A stretch of DNA of 64,000 nucleotides from an uncultured Lachnospiraceae bacterium (lineage in GTDB: Bacteria; Bacillota; Clostridia; Lachnospirales; Lachnospiraceae), in assembly GCA_947588995.1 (NCBI GenBank), contig CANPZI010000003.1, forward strand, positions 128,180 through 192,179, written 5' to 3'. Under the pieces are notes generated by a model. It worked only from the letters and a program-made list of their open reading frames with translations, ran no database searches and was not told the origin of the DNA. The position numbers and the translations under genes are program-made. Shown here in pieces: positions 5,636 to 33,503 of the stretch (positions are counted from its first letter, which is position 1; each line of letters starts with the position of its first letter).

Positions 5636-5932
5636 TCAATGCCCGGCTTTCGCCATCTTCGCCTTGATCTTATCCATGGAATCCACGAAGACGAGGATCT
5701 CTGCCACAACTTCATATAGTTCCGGCGGAATCATATCGCCGATTTCCAGACGCGACAGCGTATCCGCCAGCTTGTCATCCCGGTGGATCGGCACATCGGC
5801 CTCTTTTGCCCGTTCGATAATGCGCTCCGCCAGTGCGCCCCGGCCCGAAGCGATGACACGGGGCGCCTCGTCCGCGGGATCATACTCTAACGCAATCGCC
5901 TGTTTCGGTTTTGTATTCTCTTTTTCGGCCAT
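5636..5932 (-). CDS. ylqH: FlhB C-terminal-domain-like protein (YlqH / EscU-YscU-HrcU family)
   Basis: 98 aa. AIALEYDPADEAPRVIASGRGALAERIIERAKEADVPIHRDDKLADTL...IPPELYEVVAEIL matches the FlhB/YscU autocleavage-domain fold family. AAGGAGG RBS. Confidence 0.8.
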   Translation of the reverse strand: MAEKENTKPKQAIALEYDPADEAPRVIASGRGALAERIIERAKEADVPIHRDDKLADTLSRLEIGDMIPPELYEVVAEILVFVDSMDKIKAKMAKAGH

Positions 5933-5951
5933 CCGGACGCCTCCTTATCTC

Positions 5952-7730
5952 TTATGCCCGCATATCAAAAGATGTTCTGCTGAGCACCGATATATTCTTT
6001 CCCTGGCTTAAGATCGTCTGCAGGATGCCCTCATCCTGTGTCTCCTCTTCTTTCACGGAAAACTGCGCTTTCAGATCATACCCCCGCCCGGCCAGCCTCT
6101 CATCCAGCAGATGAATATGCTCCTCGATCAGATCCAGCGCGCTCTCGTCCCGCAGTGTAAAATTCGTGTTCACCCTGTTCTGCTGCATGGTCACATAGAC
6201 GTCCAGCGGCCCGAGATGCTCCATATCCAGATGTAACAGCGCGCTCACGCTGCCGTCTTTGGCGGCCAGATTCTTCTTGTTCGTGTAGACGTACAGGTCG
6301 CCGTGCGCGTTGTTGCCCGCCAGCTTGAGCGGGAGCTGGATATAGGTGAACATGTGATTCAGCTGGTTCATAAAATCCACATTGTTCTGCAGATTCTGAA
6401 CGCTTCTCGCCGCCGGCAGATCCGCCTTGCCGACTTCCTGCATCGCCTCGTGCAGGCGCATGGACTGCTCCCGCACCCGCTCGTAGAGCTGTTCCACCTT
6501 GTGCGGGTCGGCCACATCTTTCGGTTCGATCAGCCACTGTTTCCCCATCTCTTCTTTCAGGAGAGCCGCGAACTCCCTGCTGTCAAGCAGCCGCGCCATC
6601 AGACGCGCATGCGGATCGTCCGCGTCCGCGCGCGGCATCAGGCCGCGGACCAGCGCAAGCACCTCCCCCGAAGGCATCCCGCCGCTTCCAACCTGCCGCG
6701 CCGTCTGCTCGTCTGCGCCCAGTTCCCGCAGCAGATCGCCCAGCGTGCTCCACTGTTGATCCGTGAGGACAGCCTCCCTGAGGACCGTCTGTCCCTCCTC
6801 CTGCGCCGGCGCGCTCTCGCCGCGGCTCACCATGTCGATCACGGTCTTCGCCGCGTCTCCCTGAAGCTGTGCCGACACATTTTCCGCCTGCGCCTGTACT
6901 CCCTCCGACGCCGCATTCGGCACGCCCGGCGCGCCGTCTGCCGTATTCTCCATCACAGCCGCGCCGTCAGCGGCCTGCGGCTGCGCTTCCGGCCGCACCG
7001 CCACCATCCCGTCGGCATCGGCCTGCCCATAGTTCAGAAAAATATCCAGCACCTGCCGATAAAACGCAATCGCCTGATCCGTCCTGCCCTCACCGGCCAG
7101 TTCCGCGAAGATCTGCGGCAGTTCATCCAGAATCGTCTCCACGCTCCCGAGAAGCTGGTGATTTGCCTGGCTGTACTGCTCGAACTGCGCGATATTCTCC
7201 TCCGTGACCGGCATGCCGAGCCGCGTCATCTGCACCAGCGTGGCCGGATTCTGCGCGGGAAATTCCATCATAAGACGGCTGATATTGGCGAGGGACTCCC
7301 TGTCAATCGGCATCCCCTCCTCCATCATCACCGCCACCATCTCGATATTGTTTGCCGTCTCGGGAAGCCCCGCGGCATCAAGCGCCCGCATGACGGTGGG
7401 CTCGTTCGCCATATTGGCGTACAGCGGCGTCAGCGAAAGCACGGAGCCGTTGTTCGCCTTGACCTCAAAGCTCATATTCTGCCCGAGCGCCAGACTGATG
7501 CTCTGATCGATCTTCGCGTTGATCAGTATGTTCTGTCTGAGCGCGATCTGCACGGCATTTCCGTCACGGCTGACGACGGAACCCTGTATCGTCTGCCCCG
7601 GCACCAGATTCCTGATCTCGCTCTGGATCCGGTAGGCCCGCTCCCCTCTGGACATGGCGTCCGGCACTCTGACCGTATCGGCAGACCTGACGCTCTGATT
7701 GTCTCTCTTAAAAATATTTCCCAGATTCAC
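5952..7730 (-). CDS. YlqG-like protein with FliK-type (hook-length-control-like) C-terminal domain
   Basis: 592-aa ORF with GTG start at 7730. C-terminal region (LPLKLAGNNAHGDLYVYTNKK...LHLDMEHLGPLDVYVTMQQNRVNTNFTL...LDERLAGRGY) resembles the Flg_hook domain. Sits between rnhB and ylqH, as ylqG does in Bacillus. Confidence 0.55.
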   Translation of the reverse strand: MNLGNIFKRDNQSVRSADTVRVPDAMSRGERAYRIQSEIRNLVPGQTIQGSVVSRDGNAVQIALRQNILINAKIDQSISLALGQNMSFEVKANNGSVLSLTPLYANMANEPTVMRALDAAGLPETANNIEMVAVMMEEGMPIDRESLANISRLMMEFPAQNPATLVQMTRLGMPVTEENIAQFEQYSQANHQLLGSVETILDELPQIFAELAGEGRTDQAIAFYRQVLDIFLNYGQADADGMVAVRPEAQPQAADGAAVMENTADGAPGVPNAASEGVQAQAENVSAQLQGDAAKTVIDMVSRGESAPAQEEGQTVLREAVLTDQQWSTLGDLLRELGADEQTARQVGSGGMPSGEVLALVRGLMPRADADDPHARLMARLLDSREFAALLKEEMGKQWLIEPKDVADPHKVEQLYERVREQSMRLHEAMQEVGKADLPAARSVQNLQNNVDFMNQLNHMFTYIQLPLKLAGNNAHGDLYVYTNKKNLAAKDGSVSALLHLDMEHLGPLDVYVTMQQNRVNTNFTLRDESALDLIEEHIHLLDERLAGRGYDLKAQFSVKEEETQDEGILQTILSQGKNISVLSRTSFDMRA

Positions 7731-7757
7731 TGTCTTCCCTCTTATTCGATGATAGGT

Positions 7758-8525
7758 TCAGCAGAAGTGCGTGATGAACGACCGCCTGTGGATCGGGCAG
7801 GGACCGTATTTCTTCAGCGCTTCGATGTGCGCCCTGGCGCCGTAGCCCTTGTTTGACGCGAAGCCGTACTCCGGATAAATATCGTCATAGCGCACCATCA
7901 GCCGGTCCCTGGTGACTTTGGCCACAATGCTCGCCGCGCCGATCGAGATGCTCTTGGCGTCCCCCTTGATGATCGGCACCTGCCTGACAGAAACCTGCGG
8001 TATGGTGACGGCATCATTCAGCAGAAGATCCGGCGCCACCGAAAGCTGTGAAATCGCTTCCCGCATGGCCTCGTAGGTGGCCTGCAGGATGTTGATCTCG
8101 TCGATCCGCTCCGGCGTGCTGTACCCCAGTCCTACAGCCACCGCGCGCTCCATGATCACATCATAAAGCTCCTCTCTCTTTTTTTCGGACAGTTTCTTGG
8201 AATCGTTGATATATAAAATGTCACAATCTTTGGGCAGTATGACCGCGCCCGCCACCACCGGACCGGCCAGAGGGCCGCGCCCGACCTCGTCGATGCCGCA
8301 TATGTGGGCATAGGCGGCGTACTCCCGCTCATACTTCTTCAGTGCCTCGCAGCGTGCCTTTTCTTTCTCCCAGGCTGCCAGACGCTTTCTGCCCCGCTCC
8401 ACGGCAGCGCGTACTCCCTCCCTGTCGTCCTGCGCATATTCCAAAAACAAAGCAGGCAGCTCTTCCGGTGCTGCCGCCTGTAATCTCGCCCTGATGGCTC
8501 CGATTGTCTCCGCCATTTTTCCCAT
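7758..8525 (-). CDS. rnhB: ribonuclease HII
   Basis: ICGIDEVGRGPLAGPVVAGAV catalytic DE motif, DSKKLS, ASIVAKVTRD. Confidence 0.92.
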   Translation of the reverse strand: MGKMAETIGAIRARLQAAAPEELPALFLEYAQDDREGVRAAVERGRKRLAAWEKEKARCEALKKYEREYAAYAHICGIDEVGRGPLAGPVVAGAVILPKDCDILYINDSKKLSEKKREELYDVIMERAVAVGLGYSTPERIDEINILQATYEAMREAISQLSVAPDLLLNDAVTIPQVSVRQVPIIKGDAKSISIGAASIVAKVTRDRLMVRYDDIYPEYGFASNKGYGARAHIEALKKYGPCPIHRRSFITHFC

Positions 8526-8527
8526 CC

Positions 8528-9067
8528 CTACCTGTGTTTGATCAAGCCGAACTTGTCAAGCGGCCAGATGCGCAGCCACGCCCGGCCGATGATTTCCTCC
8601 CGCTTAATATTGCCCACGGACGGATCCCGGCTGTCCGTACTGTTGTTTCTGTTATCTCCCATCACGAAATATTCGTCGTCGCCGAGCCGGATTTCTTCAT
8701 AGGCTCTGCCGGGGCTCTGGATGACTTCCTTGCCGTAGTTTTCCTCAAGCACCTCGCCGTTGATCAGGATATTGCCCTCCTCATCGATCCGCACAGTCTC
8801 CCCAGGCAGGCCGATAATGCGCTTGATATAGTAGGTATTGTCCTCATAGCGGAAAGGAAAGACGATGATGTCAAAACGCTCCGGCTCATGAAACCTGTAG
8901 CTGATCTTATCCACAATCAGATTGTCTTCACTGCTCAGTTTCGGCTCCATGGAGCTGCCGAGCACCTGCGTCCTCTGTCCTACGAAGTGAATGACCAGAT
9001 AGACGGCGCACAGAACAAACAAGATATAGATGCTGGTGCTCAAAATCTCTTTCAATGCTTTCTTCAT
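8528..9067 (-). CDS. lepB: signal peptidase I (copy 1)
   Basis: SSMEP Ser box, YIKRIIGLPGE Lys box, GDNRNNSTDSR box. ATG at 9067 (MKKALKEI) with GAGGAAAG RBS. Alternative GTG at 9100. Confidence 0.88.
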   Translation of the reverse strand: MKKALKEILSTSIYILFVLCAVYLVIHFVGQRTQVLGSSMEPKLSSEDNLIVDKISYRFHEPERFDIIVFPFRYEDNTYYIKRIIGLPGETVRIDEEGNILINGEVLEENYGKEVIQSPGRAYEEIRLGDDEYFVMGDNRNNSTDSRDPSVGNIKREEIIGRAWLRIWPLDKFGLIKHR

Positions 9068-28138: not shown

Positions 28139-28208
28139 TGCCGCTTTCCTCTCTGCTTAGCATATCCCGTTTTGCGGAATTCATGTCATGACAGGGGCCT
28201 GTCGCCCC

Positions 28209-29027
28209 TTATGAATAATAGGCCATCAGGACCGTGATATCGTCCCCGCAGCCGAGCTCGCTCGTCTCCTTAAGCCATCCTCTCAGACTGTCCGATACGG
28301 CTTTCGCGCCGTGTTTTCGCAGCAGCGCATAGTAATCGGCACAGGTTTTACAGAATTCGTCCCCGTTCTTATAGCTGTTCGCCATGCCGTCCGTGGAGAG
28401 CATGTACAAAAGCGGTCGCCGCCGCTTCCCGTCCCGCCTCGCCGTGCAGGTGATCGCTTTGCGCCATGCCTCCGCACGGCTCAGCGAATGCGTCTCCGTG
28501 CCGAGAATCTTATCCGCCTCGATCACGCTCTGCACACCTTTGCCTGTAACTTCCATGATATCGCCGTCCCCCAGCTGAAAAGCGAACAGGAACTCTTCCG
28601 TCAGCGCCAGGCCGAGCAGTGTGCTGCCGTACATGCGGTACACGGCCTCGCTGTCCTTTTCCCCTTCCGGATCAAGAGGAACTTCCCGTTTATGGTTCGC
28701 GTGGGCTTTCAGGACTCTGCGCTTCCACTCAGCCTCAATGGCCTGCGCCACCTTGGTGTCGCCCTCGCGCTTTAGAAACGTCAGGAGCATATCCGTCCTG
28801 TCGGCGTAGGTGTCCAGATAATCCTCCATGATTTTACAGAAGACATTCACGGCGATATCCGCTCCCGTTCTGCTGTATGGACAGGCATCGCTCCCATGGC
28901 CGTCGGCGACCGCCAGGATAACGGTATCCTCGCCACGCTCGACCTTTTTCAGGCTGTCCTGACACTCCCGCCCGCTTCTGATGTGGGACGCGCCCTGCAC
29001 GGATTCGCCAAATACGATTCGCGCCAT
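28209..29027 (-). CDS. PP2C-family Ser/Thr phosphatase (TerY-P triad phosphatase-like)
   Basis: GESVQGASHIRSGRECQDS, ILAVADGHGS, LSTDGM, GCGDDITVLM metal-binding Asp motifs. The ATG at 29027 is 7 nt after AGAGAGGGTG. Lies 5-14 nt downstream of the vWA gene. Confidence 0.85.
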   Translation of the reverse strand: MARIVFGESVQGASHIRSGRECQDSLKKVERGEDTVILAVADGHGSDACPYSRTGADIAVNVFCKIMEDYLDTYADRTDMLLTFLKREGDTKVAQAIEAEWKRRVLKAHANHKREVPLDPEGEKDSEAVYRMYGSTLLGLALTEEFLFAFQLGDGDIMEVTGKGVQSVIEADKILGTETHSLSRAEAWRKAITCTARRDGKRRRPLLYMLSTDGMANSYKNGDEFCKTCADYYALLRKHGAKAVSDSLRGWLKETSELGCGDDITVLMAYYS

Positions 29028-29041
29028 AGCCAACACCCTCT

Positions 29042-29764
29042 CTACCAGACGTCGCCGTCCTGAATATCGTCCTGATCGGGAAGCCTGCCTCCCATGCTCA
29101 CGATGACGGGCGTATCGGCGCCTGTGCCGCCCTCCGCCGCCTCATCCGCCGCGATGCTCGCCGGGGCGGAGACCAGGGATGCCGCGGTGGAGGCCCATTT
29201 GATCATCTTGGTGAGCGCCGCCGCGTTGTTCGCCTGCAGTACCAGCTCCCTGTTGCCCGTGAACTCCTCCAGCACCGTGTCGTCCGCATCCTGTCCGATG
29301 GAGATCGCGATTTTGACGGCCTTTTTCCCCCAGGGGAGCTTCTTTAACTCCTCCAGCGACTTCTTGTAGTCGTCCGTCGGCTGCCCGTCCGACAGAAGAA
29401 CCAGCACGGGCGGAAGCGCCCTGTCGGACATGGGCGGTATCGTCAGCTGCGCCGCCAGAAGCTCGAACGCCTTGCCCAGATCGGTCACCCCGTCCGCCTC
29501 CAGATCGTCCCATGCAAAATCTTCCACATTCACGGGACTGCTCGTCACCCAGGATGCGCCCGTGGAAAATTTGAGCGTGCGGATCATGAGCTGCGCATTC
29601 GGATTGTTCTCCGCCGCCGCCACCATCTCCGGAATCGTCGACTGGATCGCGTGATTCACCGTGCCGATCTTTTCCCCGCGCATGGAACCTGAACAGTCCA
29701 CAATCCAAAAGAAATGCAAGGGTCTGCTCGCCAGTTCCCCGCCCGGTCTTTTCAATGCTGCCAT
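29042..29764 (-). CDS. von Willebrand factor A domain protein (TerY-like)
   Basis: MIDAS DCSGSM ... GVTDLG ... LLSDGQPTD. 240 aa with an acidic tail. AGGAGG RBS before the ATG at 29764. Confidence 0.85.
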   Translation of the reverse strand: MAALKRPGGELASRPLHFFWIVDCSGSMRGEKIGTVNHAIQSTIPEMVAAAENNPNAQLMIRTLKFSTGASWVTSSPVNVEDFAWDDLEADGVTDLGKAFELLAAQLTIPPMSDRALPPVLVLLSDGQPTDDYKKSLEELKKLPWGKKAVKIAISIGQDADDTVLEEFTGNRELVLQANNAAALTKMIKWASTAASLVSAPASIAADEAAEGGTGADTPVIVSMGGRLPDQDDIQDGDVW

Positions 29765-29777
29765 AGTATCCCTCCTC

Positions 29778-30932
29778 TTATCCCTGTGCCCTGGCACATC
29801 TGATCTGCTGTTTTCTCGCATAGCTCATCGCATATGAGCCCGCATTGCACAATATCGTAAAGTCCGGATGTCTGTCGTCAGCCTCCCCGAACGTCTGGAT
29901 AAAGCCGCTTCCTCTGCCGCCGCCGATCTCGCTGACGGAGTCAGGCAGATAGATGCGCTCTAACTTCCTGCACCCGGCAAACGCGCCCTGCCCGATGCTC
30001 TGCACGCCCTCCGGCAGCGTCACGGACACCAGCGACTCGCAGCCCTCGAAAGCTTCCGACCGAATCGCGGAGAGCGCCGGCGGAAAGATCACTTCCGTCA
30101 GGCTTTTGCACCAGCAGAACGTATTCTCTTTAATTTCCCCAAGCCCGGCAGACAACGCAATCCTCTCCAGCTTCGCGCAGCCGGCGAAAGCGTTCTCACC
30201 GATATACTTCACACTGTCCGGCACATTCACACGCTCCAGCGCCGTATTTTCAAATGTGCCCTCCAGCTTCGTCATGGTTCCCAGAATCTTCGGACAGCCG
30301 GTCGGATCCGCCGTGCCGATCCGCTTCAATGTCCCCGGCAGGACTACCTCCCGCAGCTCCTTGCAGTTTAAGAACACGCCGTTGCCCAGCGTCTCGATGC
30401 CCTCCGGAAGAACAATCTTCTCGATGCCGACGCAGCCCTTAAAAGCGTGGTTGCCAAGCTCTGTCACCTTTCTGCCGCCGACGCTGCCCGGCACCGCGAT
30501 CACCGCCTCGTCGAAATCGATATAGCGAAGCAGCCGGATCCCTTTCGGCGTATCCTCGTACTCGTAGGCGCTCTCGTCAGCCTCCGGCACTTCCCCGCCC
30601 GCGGGGACGCCCTCCGTCTCTCCGCCGCACTCTGCCTCCGTCATGACGCCGAGCGCCCTCGCCCAGGTCAGCACGGCAGCCTCGGCGTTCTGCGTCTGTA
30701 TGCCGTATCCCTGGCCGACAGACTTTACGAAACGGTGCAGCGACACATCGTCCAGCCGGTCAAGCCCCTGCAGTTCCCCGACAATGCCGTCGTCATAAAC
30801 CATCAGCAGGATGTTCCGCCGCAGTCTGTCCTCCGCAAAGAAATCAGACAACAGTGCCTGCAGCTTTTTTCGGTCAGAGAGAGCGTCCGGATAATCTTTT
30901 ACAATCCTTGCCAAGATTCTGTGATCTTCCAT
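29778..30932 (-). CDS. cytoplasmic BspA-type leucine-rich-repeat protein with helical N-terminal domain
   Basis: 384 aa, no signal peptide. About 7 repeats of the pattern I-x-L/I-P-x-x-V/I-x-x-I-G-x-x-A-F-x-x-C-x-x-L (e.g. IVLPEGIETLGNGVFLNCKEL, VTLPEGVQSIGQGAFAGCRKL). AAGGAGG RBS. Lies 9 nt after the kinase stop. Confidence 0.8.
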   Translation of the reverse strand: MEDHRILARIVKDYPDALSDRKKLQALLSDFFAEDRLRRNILLMVYDDGIVGELQGLDRLDDVSLHRFVKSVGQGYGIQTQNAEAAVLTWARALGVMTEAECGGETEGVPAGGEVPEADESAYEYEDTPKGIRLLRYIDFDEAVIAVPGSVGGRKVTELGNHAFKGCVGIEKIVLPEGIETLGNGVFLNCKELREVVLPGTLKRIGTADPTGCPKILGTMTKLEGTFENTALERVNVPDSVKYIGENAFAGCAKLERIALSAGLGEIKENTFCWCKSLTEVIFPPALSAIRSEAFEGCESLVSVTLPEGVQSIGQGAFAGCRKLERIYLPDSVSEIGGGRGSGFIQTFGEADDRHPDFTILCNAGSYAMSYARKQQIRCARAQG

Positions 30933-30941
30933 GAGGCCTCC

Positions 30942-32240
30942 TTAACAAAATTCTCCCACAAGCTGCCCGAAATCAATCTTCACATTCTCCGCAATCGCGG
31001 CGGAGCGCCCCGGCTCAATCGGAATCTGCGTGCCGTCCGCCTTGATGTATGTCCAGTTGTCTTTCGTGAGGTTCTTAATGCCCCATATGTCGGAATTCTT
31101 CGGATTCCGCACCACCTCGCCGGCTGCCGTCTCCATATCGTATCCGCCGTCCGTGTGGTGCCTGTACAGTTTCGTGCCGGCCGAAAGCAGCAGGGTGCTC
31201 CTCCCCGCGACGAGCTTGGCCGGAACGGTCACGGGCTTCTGGCAGCTCCAGCAGGTGTGCGCCGCGCCGGCCGCCTCTTTCTGTGCGTCATAGAAAACCT
31301 CCGCACCGCAGTGCGGACAGACGATGATGCCGGACATCAGATTGGCAAAAGTCTCCAGCCACTGCGTCTCGGTCACCCTGCGGTTCGGCTCTCTCAGGCC
31401 CACCGTGAAAGACTCGGTAAACAGATCCCGCAGCTTCCCTGGGTACAGATCCCAGAAGATGAGCGCGTTGTCCTGATAACCCGCAAGCGGCCTGTTATCC
31501 TTGTTGTCCGGGTCGAAGATAAAAAGCGGATCGGTCCCGTACAGCCTGTTCATCGCGTGGATATCCATACACTTGATCTGCGCCTCCCGCTTTCCCTCCA
31601 ACGGGTGATTCAGCATAAACATATAGAACAGAAGCACTGCCAGGGAAAACAGATCGGTGTTCCGCGACGGCTTCGCCCTGCCCAGCACAATCTCCGGCGC
31701 CATAAAGCGCGGCGTCCCATAGATTCCGCTCTTCGCTCCGTTGTAGGAGACGTTGTCGTTGTCGCAGATCAGGACGTCGCCGGTGTCCGGATCGAAGAAC
31801 ACATTGCCGAAAGAGATATCGCGGTAGCTGTAACCTTTCGCGTGCAGCGCGTTGTAGCCTTTGGTCAGGTTGTAGGCAGCCCGGCACAGGCAGTAGAAAG
31901 AAGGCTCGGCCCGGCGCTTCATCATGTCCACGATACTCTTATAATGGGATGGCCGAAGCGGCATCACATAGCCGAAAGAATCCCCTTTCGCGCTGTCGAT
32001 CATATCCTGCGGCCACAGAAAAGAGACGTCCGGCTGCCCTTTGCGGATCAGGTTATCCAGAATCTCCCGCTGGTTCTCCGTGGCGGTATTTTTATAATAC
32101 CACTTCATGGCGCAGGTTTTGCCGCGCGATTCCACCTCGTAGACTTCGCCCTGCCCGCCGGAGCCCAGAAGTCTTTTAATCTTATACTTGACACCGCTCT
32201 CAGCAAGAAGCGACGTGCCGTTCTTCAACTGTCCGTCCAT
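30942..32240 (-). CDS. Ser/Thr protein kinase with zinc ribbon and FHA-like C-terminal domain
   Basis: LGSGGQGEVY, CAMKWY, YRDISFGN, ICDNDN, GTPRFMAPE, then CPHCG...CWSC. The ATG at 32240 is preceded by AGGAGA. A longer start at 32270 is possible (tracked ORF 30942..32270). Confidence 0.85.
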   Translation of the reverse strand: MDGQLKNGTSLLAESGVKYKIKRLLGSGGQGEVYEVESRGKTCAMKWYYKNTATENQREILDNLIRKGQPDVSFLWPQDMIDSAKGDSFGYVMPLRPSHYKSIVDMMKRRAEPSFYCLCRAAYNLTKGYNALHAKGYSYRDISFGNVFFDPDTGDVLICDNDNVSYNGAKSGIYGTPRFMAPEIVLGRAKPSRNTDLFSLAVLLFYMFMLNHPLEGKREAQIKCMDIHAMNRLYGTDPLFIFDPDNKDNRPLAGYQDNALIFWDLYPGKLRDLFTESFTVGLREPNRRVTETQWLETFANLMSGIIVCPHCGAEVFYDAQKEAAGAAHTCWSCQKPVTVPAKLVAGRSTLLLSAGTKLYRHHTDGGYDMETAAGEVVRNPKNSDIWGIKNLTKDNWTYIKADGTQIPIEPGRSAAIAENVKIDFGQLVGEFC

Positions 32241-32285
32241 AATCGGTTTCTCCTGCCTGCCGTCATACATCCGCCCGCAGACGAA

Positions 32286-33503
32286 TCAAATACTGGCCCT
32301 CACCACTTTGGGCTGATAGCCGTTCTCATGCAGCGCCTTGATAATCTGTTCCTTGTGTTCCGTGCCGTAGGCCTCCAGCGTGATACGCAGCTCCACCGCC
32401 GCGCTGCGGTTGATCGAGACGAACTGGTTGTGCTCCAGCTTGATGACATTGCCGTTCTGCTTCGCGATGATGCCGGAGACTCTCGTCAACTCTCCCGGCT
32501 TATCCGGCAGAAGCACCGACACCGTAAAGATTCTGTCGCGCAGCACCAGCCCCTGCTGTACCACCGAGGACATCGTGATCACATCCATGTTGCCGCCGCT
32601 CAAGATCGATACGATCTTCTTATTCTTCACGTCGAGGTGCTTGAGCGCCGCCACCGTGAGCAGGCCGGAGTTCTCCACGATCATCTTGTGGTTCTCCACC
32701 ATATCGAGGAATGCGACGACCAGCTCCTCGTCCTCCACGGTGATGATATCGTCCAGATTTTTGCTGATATACGGAAAGATATTCGTTCCCGGCGTCTTCA
32801 CCGCCGTGCCGTCCGCGATGGTGCTCACATGGTCGAGCGTCATGACTTTGCCCGCGCGGATGGACTCCTGCATACAGTTCGCCCCGGCAGGTTCCACGCC
32901 GATCACTTTGATCTTGGGATTCAGGAGCTTTGCCAGAGTGGAAACGCCCGTGGCCAGCCCGCCGCCGCCGACCGGCACGAGAATATAGTCCACCAGCGGC
33001 AGTTCCTTGATGATTTCCATGGCGATCGTGCCCTGCCCCGTGGCCACGTCCAGATCGTCAAAAGGATGCACGAACGTGTAGCCTTTCTCCTCCGCCAGCC
33101 GGTACGCATAGGCGCACGCCTCATCATACACATCGCCGCTTAAGATCACTTCCGCCCCATAGCCTTTCGTGCGGTTCACCTTGATGAGCGGCGTGGTGGT
33201 GGGCATCACGATAACCGCCTTGACGCCGTAACACTTTGCCGCGTAGGCGACGCCCTGGGCGTGATTGCCCGCCGACGCCGTGATCAGACCTCTTCCCCGC
33301 TCCTCCTCGGACAGGGTGCTGATCTTGTAGTACGCGCCGCGCAGCTTGTACGCGCCCGTCAGCTGCATGTTCTCGGGCTTTAAGTACACCTTGTTGTCCG
33401 TCTGTGCACTGAAGTAATCACTGTACACCAGCTTCGTCTCCGAGGCCACTTCCCTGACTACCTCGTACGCCTCCTCAAATTTATCCAATGACAGTTCTTT
33501 CAT
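32286..33503 (-). CDS. ilvA: threonine ammonia-lyase
   Basis: PLP lysine YKLRGAYYK, SAGNHAQGVA, GGGGL loop, C-terminal ACT-like domain. Confidence 0.9.
   Translation of the reverse strand: MKELSLDKFEEAYEVVREVASETKLVYSDYFSAQTDNKVYLKPENMQLTGAYKLRGAYYKISTLSEEERGRGLITASAGNHAQGVAYAAKCYGVKAVIVMPTTTPLIKVNRTKGYGAEVILSGDVYDEACAYAYRLAEEKGYTFVHPFDDLDVATGQGTIAMEIIKELPLVDYILVPVGGGGLATGVSTLAKLLNPKIKVIGVEPAGANCMQESIRAGKVMTLDHVSTIADGTAVKTPGTNIFPYISKNLDDIITVEDEELVVAFLDMVENHKMIVENSGLLTVAALKHLDVKNKKIVSILSGGNMDVITMSSVVQQGLVLRDRIFTVSVLLPDKPGELTRVSGIIAKQNGNVIKLEHNQFVSINRSAAVELRITLEAYGTEHKEQIIKALHENGYQPKVVRASI

Follow-up and report, generated by a model that had tools for sequence, protein, structure and literature searches.

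The 64-kb window analyzed here (the whole stretch of 64,000 nucleotides (nt) taken from contig CANPZI010000003.1 of an uncultured Lachnospiraceae bacterium) contains, on its minus strand, four consecutive genes that encode a Hanks-type Ser/Thr kinase, a leucine-rich repeat (LRR) protein, a von Willebrand factor A (vWA) protein, and a PP2C phosphatase. Having weighed the evidence, we think that this cassette is probably a chromosomally fixed, four-gene phospho-signaling conflict system of the TerY-P class, directed against phages or mobile elements, in which a 'client' protein is attached to a signaling 'core'; we infer both the defense role in the Lachnospiraceae host and the mechanism. The client would be the LRR protein, which begins with a small helical domain, here termed the handle, that recurs on other proteins encoded beside kinase-vWA-PP2C triads.

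The kinase gene (30942–32240) is followed by those for the LRR protein (29778–30932; 384 residues; ribosome-binding site (RBS) AAGGAGG), the vWA protein (29042–29764; 240 residues; RBS GAGGAGGG), and PP2C (28209–29027; 272 residues; a weak, purine-rich GAGAGGG as RBS), all on the minus strand and separated by 9 nt, 13 nt, and 14 nt, the last gap falling to 5 nt if the alternative GTG start of PP2C at 29036 is used. The longest open reading frame (ORF) for the kinase, 30942–32270, would encode 442 residues from an ATG that lies 13 nt past the ilvA stop and has no RBS; ATG 32240, with AGGAGA 8 nt upstream, is most likely the true start, giving a predicted protein of 432 residues. For identical proteins on independent public contigs, gene callers give lengths of 432, 384, 240, and 272 residues. 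An earlier note on this DNA had described four co-directional minus-strand ORFs with such gaps and RBSs; the ORF list and the sequence agree with it, the PP2C RBS being weak, and the Pfam profile check that it had proposed returned matches for all four proteins (Pkinase with E 2.4e-19, LRR_5 with 3.1e-42, VWA with 6.5e-8, and PP2C_2 with 3.3e-34). All four genes are under purifying selection, the ratios of nonsynonymous to synonymous substitution rates (dN/dS) against eight relatives being 0.065 (kinase), 0.137 (LRR protein), 0.051 (vWA protein), and 0.114 (PP2C), and the ORFs are real genes that did not arise by chance. When clustered at 90% identity, the vWA protein falls in a group of 186 members and the kinase in one of 9, while the LRR and PP2C clusters have 1 member each. 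An 898-residue ORF on the plus strand (30447–33143), antisense to the kinase and ilvA, is an artifact of GC-rich coding DNA and not a gene.

The LRR protein consists of three parts. Residues 1 to 98 (30639–30932) form the handle, an all-α domain of seven helices in an AlphaFold2 model built from a 13-sequence alignment (A3; pLDDT 94.7). It is followed by an acidic low-complexity linker (residues 99–140; 30513–30638) of low AlphaFold2 confidence, and by a BspA-type LRR_5 solenoid (residues ∼141–384; 29781–30512) that is covered by two Pfam LRR_5 stretches and modeled as repeated β strands with pLDDT 70 to 81. A single-sequence prediction of the whole protein (pLDDT 56) was uninformative for the N-terminal domain. 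The linker has the highest dN/dS within the cassette (0.29, against 0.11 for the solenoid), and its conservation is lost in the homolog from L003, a BREX-linked locus (loci are cited by their numbers in our collection where they need to be told apart). The earlier note had called this gene product a 384-residue BspA-type LRR protein; the length and the LRR_5 assignment stand, but LRR_5 spans only residues ∼141 to 384, and residues 1 to 98 are a separate domain. No match to the handle was found in Pfam, NCBIfam, PADLOC, or PHROGs, and Foldseek searches of PDB and BFVD with the model gave nothing at E < 0.5 or TM > 0.5. On these comparisons the handle is a separate domain that was previously unannotated in the domain libraries searched.

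Between the window and L003 the LRR proteins are only 27% identical, against 69% for the kinase, 76% for the vWA protein, and 61% for PP2C, and the N-terminal ∼100 residues are still common to the two LRR proteins. The handle has no invariant Ser, Thr, or Tyr, so that a docking module fits it better than a fixed phospho-acceptor. The LRR protein has neither a signal peptide nor a membrane segment, its N-terminus being a charged helical domain; of the features of a BspA-type surface adhesin it shows the LRR_5 repeats and lacks the secretion signal and anchoring.

The place of the LRR gene in the cassette is stable across species. More than 4560 homologs of the vWA protein were found, the best 120 at 52 to 90% identity, and some of them are named 'tellurium resistance protein' or, by JGI, YegL. 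A synteny scan with one genome per species gave 80 loci, 59 from Lachnospiraceae, and the order kinase-LRR-vWA-PP2C was present in all 52 of the complete loci from this family, a neighborhood comparison that bears out the suggestion in the earlier note of an additional component, the LRR gene, in this order. The other seven Lachnospiraceae loci are incomplete, all but L041 being cut by contig ends. L041 (750–4085, in a Lachnospiraceae metagenome-assembled genome) is a natural LRR-less variant, in which the vWA gene starts only 86 nt past the kinase stop and PP2C and TerY_C are retained. The operon of more distant Clostridia again includes an LRR_5 gene that bears this handle, in another position.

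We ran a handle profile against the ORFs of all fetched loci and found the domain in nearly all triad loci with sufficient flank, some loci holding two to five handle proteins. In most loci its partner is LRR_5, and elsewhere it is joined to a UvrD helicase (L087), a RecQ-like helicase (L071), a BrxL-like ATPase (L088), DEAD/ResIII helicases of ∼1050 residues (L085 and L094), and several small proteins. A word-indexed homolog search with the handle alignment returned 19 short fragments only, and an exhaustive search of cluster representatives with the handle profile (E ≤ 1e-3) was used instead; it showed 2544 clusters that carry the handle, mostly at the N-terminus and at times at the C-terminus. 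The Pfam fusions among 106 handle clusters comprise LRR_5 (18), RCC1, a DUF5050 propeller, FtsK-gamma, RNAP alpha-CTD, DEAD/ResIII, FtsK, HIRAN, OB, SMC_N, BrxL_ATPase, UvrD, RuvB, a non-specific endonuclease, and TPR. On plasmid CP157007 of Methylomonas sp. AM2-LC (L189, 8587–16016), a kinase-vWA-PP2C triad whose vWA protein is 58% identical to that of the window is followed by five consecutive handle genes, the partners being Sel1 repeats, a Tim44-like domain, Clp_N, a ClpX zinc finger, and one unknown part.

We also sampled handle proteins regardless of their context, which gave five informative loci and three more contigs that, at 2.5 to 6.8 kb, were too short to show neighbors. The full triad was present in three of the five (L100, L184, and L187) and absent from L186 and from L097, where BREX genes accompany a broken LRR gene. 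The association of handle and triad is strong, but it is not exclusive. We propose, tentatively, that the handle could be a plug of universal use in a design of 'one core, many clients', by which a TerY-P core recruits and controls interchangeable sensors or effectors (LRR, Sel1, RCC1, and propeller proteins, UvrD, RecQ, and DEAD helicases, SMC- or BrxL-like ATPases, nucleases, and Clp adaptors), and that the Clostridial unit might in addition be a regulatory or sensing add-on to BREX.

Four of the loci deserve separate mention. L186 (8177–10105) encodes an RCC1-repeat protein with two tandem handles in a TonB-receptor context, with no visible triad. Two large adjacent handle proteins, one of 971 residues with a β-propeller and LRR_5 and one of 1089 residues, are encoded in L192 (115–6350), again with no visible triad. 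In L097 to L099 (∼5900–8700), a handle and LRR gene that is frameshifted or broken comes after PglZ-BrxL and before a two-component system, without kinase, vWA, or PP2C genes; the arrangement may be what is left of a decayed locus, or else it hints at a relation between the LRR protein and BREX itself. L091 (10001–15943, on a 5.5-Mb genome contig) carries genes for a fused double-vWA protein (417 residues), PP2C, a kinase, and a 682-residue protein, the last with a weak handle match at residues 9 to 95 (E 2.7e-6).

The catalytic domain of the kinase (31542–32186; Pkinase match over residues 29–243 of the 442-residue ORF) has its motifs intact (G-loop, Lys, YRD...N, DND, and APE). The strings that the earlier note had listed are all found in the translations, namely GSGGQGEVY, AMK, YRDISFGN, CDNDN, and GTPRFMAPE in the kinase, DCSGSM, GVTD, and LLSDG in the vWA protein, and AVADGHGS and GDDITV in PP2C. 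In the four-cysteine zinc ribbon of the kinase, CPHC...CWSC (31242–31319), each of the cysteines is invariant or almost invariant among 12 diverse homologs (alignment A5); the hidden Markov model (HMM) matches for the ribbon are weak and lie below the Pfam cut-off (e.g., DZR at 0.0036). The protein ends in an apparently β-rich domain of ∼99 residues (30945–31241). This domain is kept in all homologs, where certain W, N, G, and F positions do not vary, and has a dN/dS of 0.10; it gave no sequence match in Pfam or PDB and none to an OB-fold HMM. An FHA identity had been considered for it by eye (GR / xxH / NxSxxNWT), but a profile search of PDB sequences was unsupportive, and hhalign against a GarA FHA sequence returned a probability of 0.8%; the idea was dropped.

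The metal-ion-dependent adhesion site (MIDAS) of the vWA protein is complete (D23-x-S25-x-S27, T94, and D126), and its residues are invariant in alignment A1. Identity of the protein across the 59 Lachnospiraceae species loci is 87 to 97%, and its dN/dS is matched by that of ftsY (0.050), so that it is conserved like housekeeping genes. After a variable low-complexity linker, the protein ends in P...D-V-W (29045–29053, minus strand), which is invariant in the Clostridial family in the same alignment; it looks like a short docking motif. Classic TerY and a remote two-vWA protein (P0008) are without this end.

The TerY-P triad was reportedly described by Anantharaman, Iyer, and Aravind in 2012. 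It is defined by a TerY-like vWA protein, a PP2C-like phosphatase, and a Ser/Thr kinase with a C-terminal zinc ribbon, the stand-alone defense systems of Gao et al. being TerY-P-like modules with a kinase that has an OB fold instead (PMC11090510). CoCoNuT systems of Types II and III-A embed a TerY-P module as an accessory cassette (Bell et al., eLife 2024, PMC11090510). TerY-P systems count among the validated anti-phage systems. TerY-P-like modules have been reported to protect against T7-like phages (PMC7699616) and against Autographiviridae, in the latter case with no collapse of the culture (bioRxiv 10.1101/2022.08.12.503731).

A tblastn search with the window vWA protein matched 2280 enterobacterial plasmids at 29 to 31% identity (E ∼1e-13), in three places per plasmid, which are the TerY paralogs of the classic cluster VWA-TerD-VWA-TerY_C-PP2C-kinase. 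In pairwise comparisons the protein is 31% identical to TerY1 (E 2.6e-20) and 26 to 31% identical to TerY1 to TerY3, and the kinase is 23% identical to the classic ter-cluster kinase over 344 residues (E 2e-22); BLAST shows no similarity between the window PP2C and that of the classic ter cluster (577 residues). The TerY-P-type identity proposed in the earlier note thus holds on the homology of the vWA protein to TerY1 to TerY3, the layout of Ser/Thr kinase and zinc ribbon, the TerY_C gene (PF15616), which lies directly past PP2C as a fifth gene in 48 of the 59 sister loci and is likewise present in most distant loci, and the names of the homologs. No TerY_C is present anywhere in the 64-kb window; this gene is frequent in triads and, per the accessible literature, apparently not obligatory. 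We file the locus as TerY-P-type of the zinc-ribbon-kinase kind, without TerY_C, and not as the OB-fold kind of Gao et al.

Comparison with known systems shows what is shared and what is particular. With the classic ter cluster (Escherichia coli plasmid NZ_CP068707, L188), the window shares the grouping of a TerY-type vWA protein with MIDAS, PP2C, and a Hanks kinase, and most sister loci of its cassette share the TerY_C gene. The window differs in having one vWA protein and not three, in lacking TerY_C, TerD (no homolog of which was found in it), and other ter genes, in a short PP2C_2 protein (272 residues), and in the extra gene for handle and LRR_5 between kinase and vWA. The TerY-P module of CoCoNuT has the same vWA, PP2C, and kinase-zinc ribbon proteins, and its attachment to a larger system parallels the BREX linkage of the relatives of the window; however, McrBC, CnuH, and CnuE genes are missing here, the system attached in the relatives is BREX type 1, and the handle on partner proteins is absent from the account in PMC11090510. 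Gao_TerY and the Pseudomonas aeruginosa variant of Costa et al. comprise the same three enzyme or adaptor classes and are experimentally protective against the phages named above, but they are three-gene systems of proteobacterial origin without an LRR, and the Gao-type kinase has an OB fold and not a zinc ribbon. As for BREX type 1, the genes LRR-HYP166-kinase-vWA-PP2C-TerY_C start right after brxL on the same strand in at least 11 distinct loci of distant Clostridia, whereas the window is without BREX genes and the triad is no described BREX component. In plants, LRR receptor kinases with PP2C regulators form an immune signaling pairing. The combination of an LRR ligand module, a Ser/Thr kinase, and an opposing PP2C may be likened to it as a functional analogy only, since the window proteins are separate and apparently cytoplasmic, with a BspA-type LRR, and any claim of homology is limited to domain superfamilies.

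The link to defense comes from the relatives. In all loci ordered LRR-HYP166-kinase-vWA-PP2C(-TerY_C), namely L003-10, L072-76, L078, L079, L082, L089, and L184, brxL lies directly upstream of the LRR gene, and PglZ and PglX are found further upstream where the flank allows. Flanks of 16 distant loci hold prokaryotic Argonaute (pAgo), SIR2, AriA, AbiLi, Schlafen-like, and transglutaminase-like proteins, Y-family polymerases, S24 repressors, PemK, integrases, and recombinases. The term 'defense-like', used in the earlier note, is thereby supported by association only, through relatives that stand directly behind the BREX gene brxL, within islands where integrase, pAgo, SIR2, and Abi genes also occur. 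In the window itself, tblastn with PglX, PglZ, and BrxL of L003 found nothing. HYP166, a conserved protein of ∼166 residues (L003 8154–8654 and homologs), has its gene immediately upstream of that for the kinase in every BREX-linked locus and in many other distant loci, whereas neither the window nor any of the 59 Lachnospiraceae loci has it; its sole match is a weak one to bPH_3 (E 0.011). Viral contigs contained no relatives of the handle and only two distant vWA relatives at 27 to 30% identity, and the matches to the LRR protein in phage collections were ordinary LRR_5 repeat proteins without the handle, so that these two sources gave no evidence of a phage-borne copy or decoy of the system.

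On the minus strand the cassette is flanked upstream by smc-ftsY-ilvA and downstream by yitT/DUF2179, a GH25 muramidase gene, and an AraC regulator gene. The upstream junction, from the ilvA stop to the kinase start (32241–32285, minus strand), was inspected in sequence and in a promoter and terminator scan; no terminator-like and no promoter-like site was found on the minus strand. Read-through from ilvA is therefore likely, and the cassette is probably transcribed in this way. The downstream junction (28139–28208, minus strand) holds a short GC hairpin past the PP2C stop and then a yitT promoter-like motif, CATGAATT..GCAAAACGGGATATGCTAA, which is common to cassette-bearing loci and resembles that of empty-site loci.

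Empty sites were studied in 80 metagenomic loci with an ilvA 82 to 93% identical to that of the window. The cassette is absent from all 80, and yitT directly follows ilvA in ∼44 of them (wherever the downstream gene is recognizable), with GH25 and AraC genes next in closer relatives. The closest empty-site locus, L104 (ilvA 93% identical), has a hairpin and T-run after ilvA (L104 11215–11400) that is absent in the window. Since L104 keeps this terminator hairpin and the yitT motif is retained downstream of PP2C, the cassette is a 4.1-kb insertion, located between ilvA and yitT, which took the place of the ilvA terminator but did not disturb the yitT motif. No flanking direct or inverted repeats, tRNA, integrase, or transposase were found at the cassette. 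The earlier note had called this stretch accessory-looking, and the 80 related ilvA loci without the cassette agree with that, with the caveat that within its own clade the cassette is conserved and vertical, not patchy. The subclade of the window comprises eight species loci in the setting ftsY-ilvA ... yitT-GH25, without TerY_C, while in the larger sister clade the cassette lies between rnfCDGEAB and an aldo/keto reductase gene, with flanks conserved in 37 to 44 loci. Inheritance of the cassette within each clade is vertical.

If the cassette is a conflict system, it could work as follows. The core would be the Hanks kinase with its zinc ribbon and conserved C-terminal domain, predicted to be active from its intact motifs, together with PP2C, which would reverse the action of the kinase, and the TerY-type vWA protein, whose MIDAS may clamp an acidic or phosphorylated ligand in a metal-dependent manner. 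The cytoplasmic LRR protein would be the client, plugged into the core by its ∼95-residue handle. In a first step, the LRR_5 solenoid might bind an invader-derived or infection-induced protein; the handle would then relay the signal to the kinase-vWA pair, and ligand binding would shift the balance of kinase and PP2C. In a third step, the kinase, as the presumed effector, would phosphorylate host or invader targets and so block the infection, after which PP2C would reset the system.

Several observations weigh against this reading. The phage-protection data come from other TerY-P systems, outside the sub-family of the window, and the window cassette has no recognizable killing effector, is without the TerY_C and HYP166 of its relatives, and has no BREX nearby. 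A search with PADLOC v2.0.0, which the earlier note had proposed, was uninformative on TerY-P membership: the kinase matched, though to generic models alone (mad6 and PD-T4-6), while the vWA, PP2C, and LRR proteins gave no match even at E ≤ 10, as did the classic ter triad used as control. The handle occurs apart from triads, for example in L186. The LRR protein shows no sign of diversifying selection, its dN/dS of 0.14 being equal to that of yitT and GH25. The cassette occupies fixed sites, next to ilvA in at least 8 species-level genomes and after rnfCDGEAB in ∼44, which is core-like behavior, and its synonymous divergence (dS 0.86–1.37) compares with 1.0 to 1.4 for the flanks.

We therefore considered whether the cassette could be a domesticated housekeeping or stress-signaling module, a TerY-P descendant with an endogenous role in sensing a cellular protein, the envelope, or metal, and not an anti-phage system. 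We regard this as rather unlikely. In its favor, each of two clades has its fixed site at the 3′ end of a housekeeping operon (ilvA here, and rnfB in ∼44 genomes), co-transcription with ilvA is probable as no terminator or promoter lies between, and dS equals that of the flanks; purifying selection on all four genes, the near-uniform vWA protein, and an LRR protein without diversifying selection (0.14) point the same way, as do the loss of TerY_C, HYP166, and BREX linkage and the lack of flanking mobility genes, repeats, and tRNA. However, L104, a close relative by its ilvA, is without the cassette at the same site, and because close same-site relatives lack it the cassette is dispensable and, at a slightly wider scale, patchy. 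Moreover, all examined distant relatives are in a defense or mobile context, and the neighbors suggest no endogenous target, the two host operons being mutually unrelated.

A response to metal or tellurite-type chemical stress, the original proposal for the TerY-P triads of ter clusters, in which the vWA MIDAS senses metal and the kinase and phosphatase transduce the signal, appears improbable. It would accord with the homology of the vWA protein and the kinase to classic ter-cluster proteins, with the public naming of homologs as 'tellurium resistance protein', and with the hypothesis of a metal-sensing switch for TerY-P that is cited in PMC11090510. Yet the window is without TerD, TerZ, and other ter genes and without the metal-binding gene TerY_C, the relatives adjoin BREX, helicases, and integrases and not ter biosynthetic genes, and the LRR and other handle partners are binders of protein or DNA, not of metal. 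Finally, it is very improbable that the LRR gene is an unrelated passenger encoding a BspA-like surface adhesin inside a three-gene TerY-P operon: LRR_5 proteins are usually at the surface or secreted, many that are unrelated to triads occur on phage and metagenome contigs, and there are weak NCBIfam matches to adhesin families, but this protein is without signal peptide or membrane segment, its gene is found at the same place in all 52 complete loci and is under purifying selection, with a single natural LRR-less variant (L041) among ∼60 loci, and its handle is common to LRR-free proteins linked to triads.

It is already known that the triad exists, that it has a part in defense, and that it can be attached to larger restriction systems. 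A full-text literature search for TerY together with LRR, leucine-rich, or BREX gave no description of the further features reported here, the founding paper of 2012 and Gao 2020 being outside its coverage, so that a prior mention is possible. Within that scope, no description was found of the stable LRR_5 component, of a handle common to triad-linked partners, of the BREX-TerY-P super-operon in Clostridia, or of the fixed chromosomal state in Lachnospiraceae, which apparently are new.

A fourth protein class is thus stably tied to one large TerY-P sub-family, and it is defined by a shared docking-type domain and not by its variable business end, the whole unit being repeatedly joined to BREX. 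Defined candidates that can be tested are thereby at hand for the sensors and substrates in TerY-P signaling, with a natural comparison set in the four-, five-, and six-gene versions, the LRR-less variant, and the plasmid version with five clients. The fixed, vertical state of the cassette in gut Lachnospiraceae raises the question of a domesticated conflict system. If the handle does serve as a plug for many clients, this would answer a question that has stood since 2012 and 2020, namely what is sensed and acted on by TerY-P systems, and it would define a new protein domain family of ∼2500 clusters.

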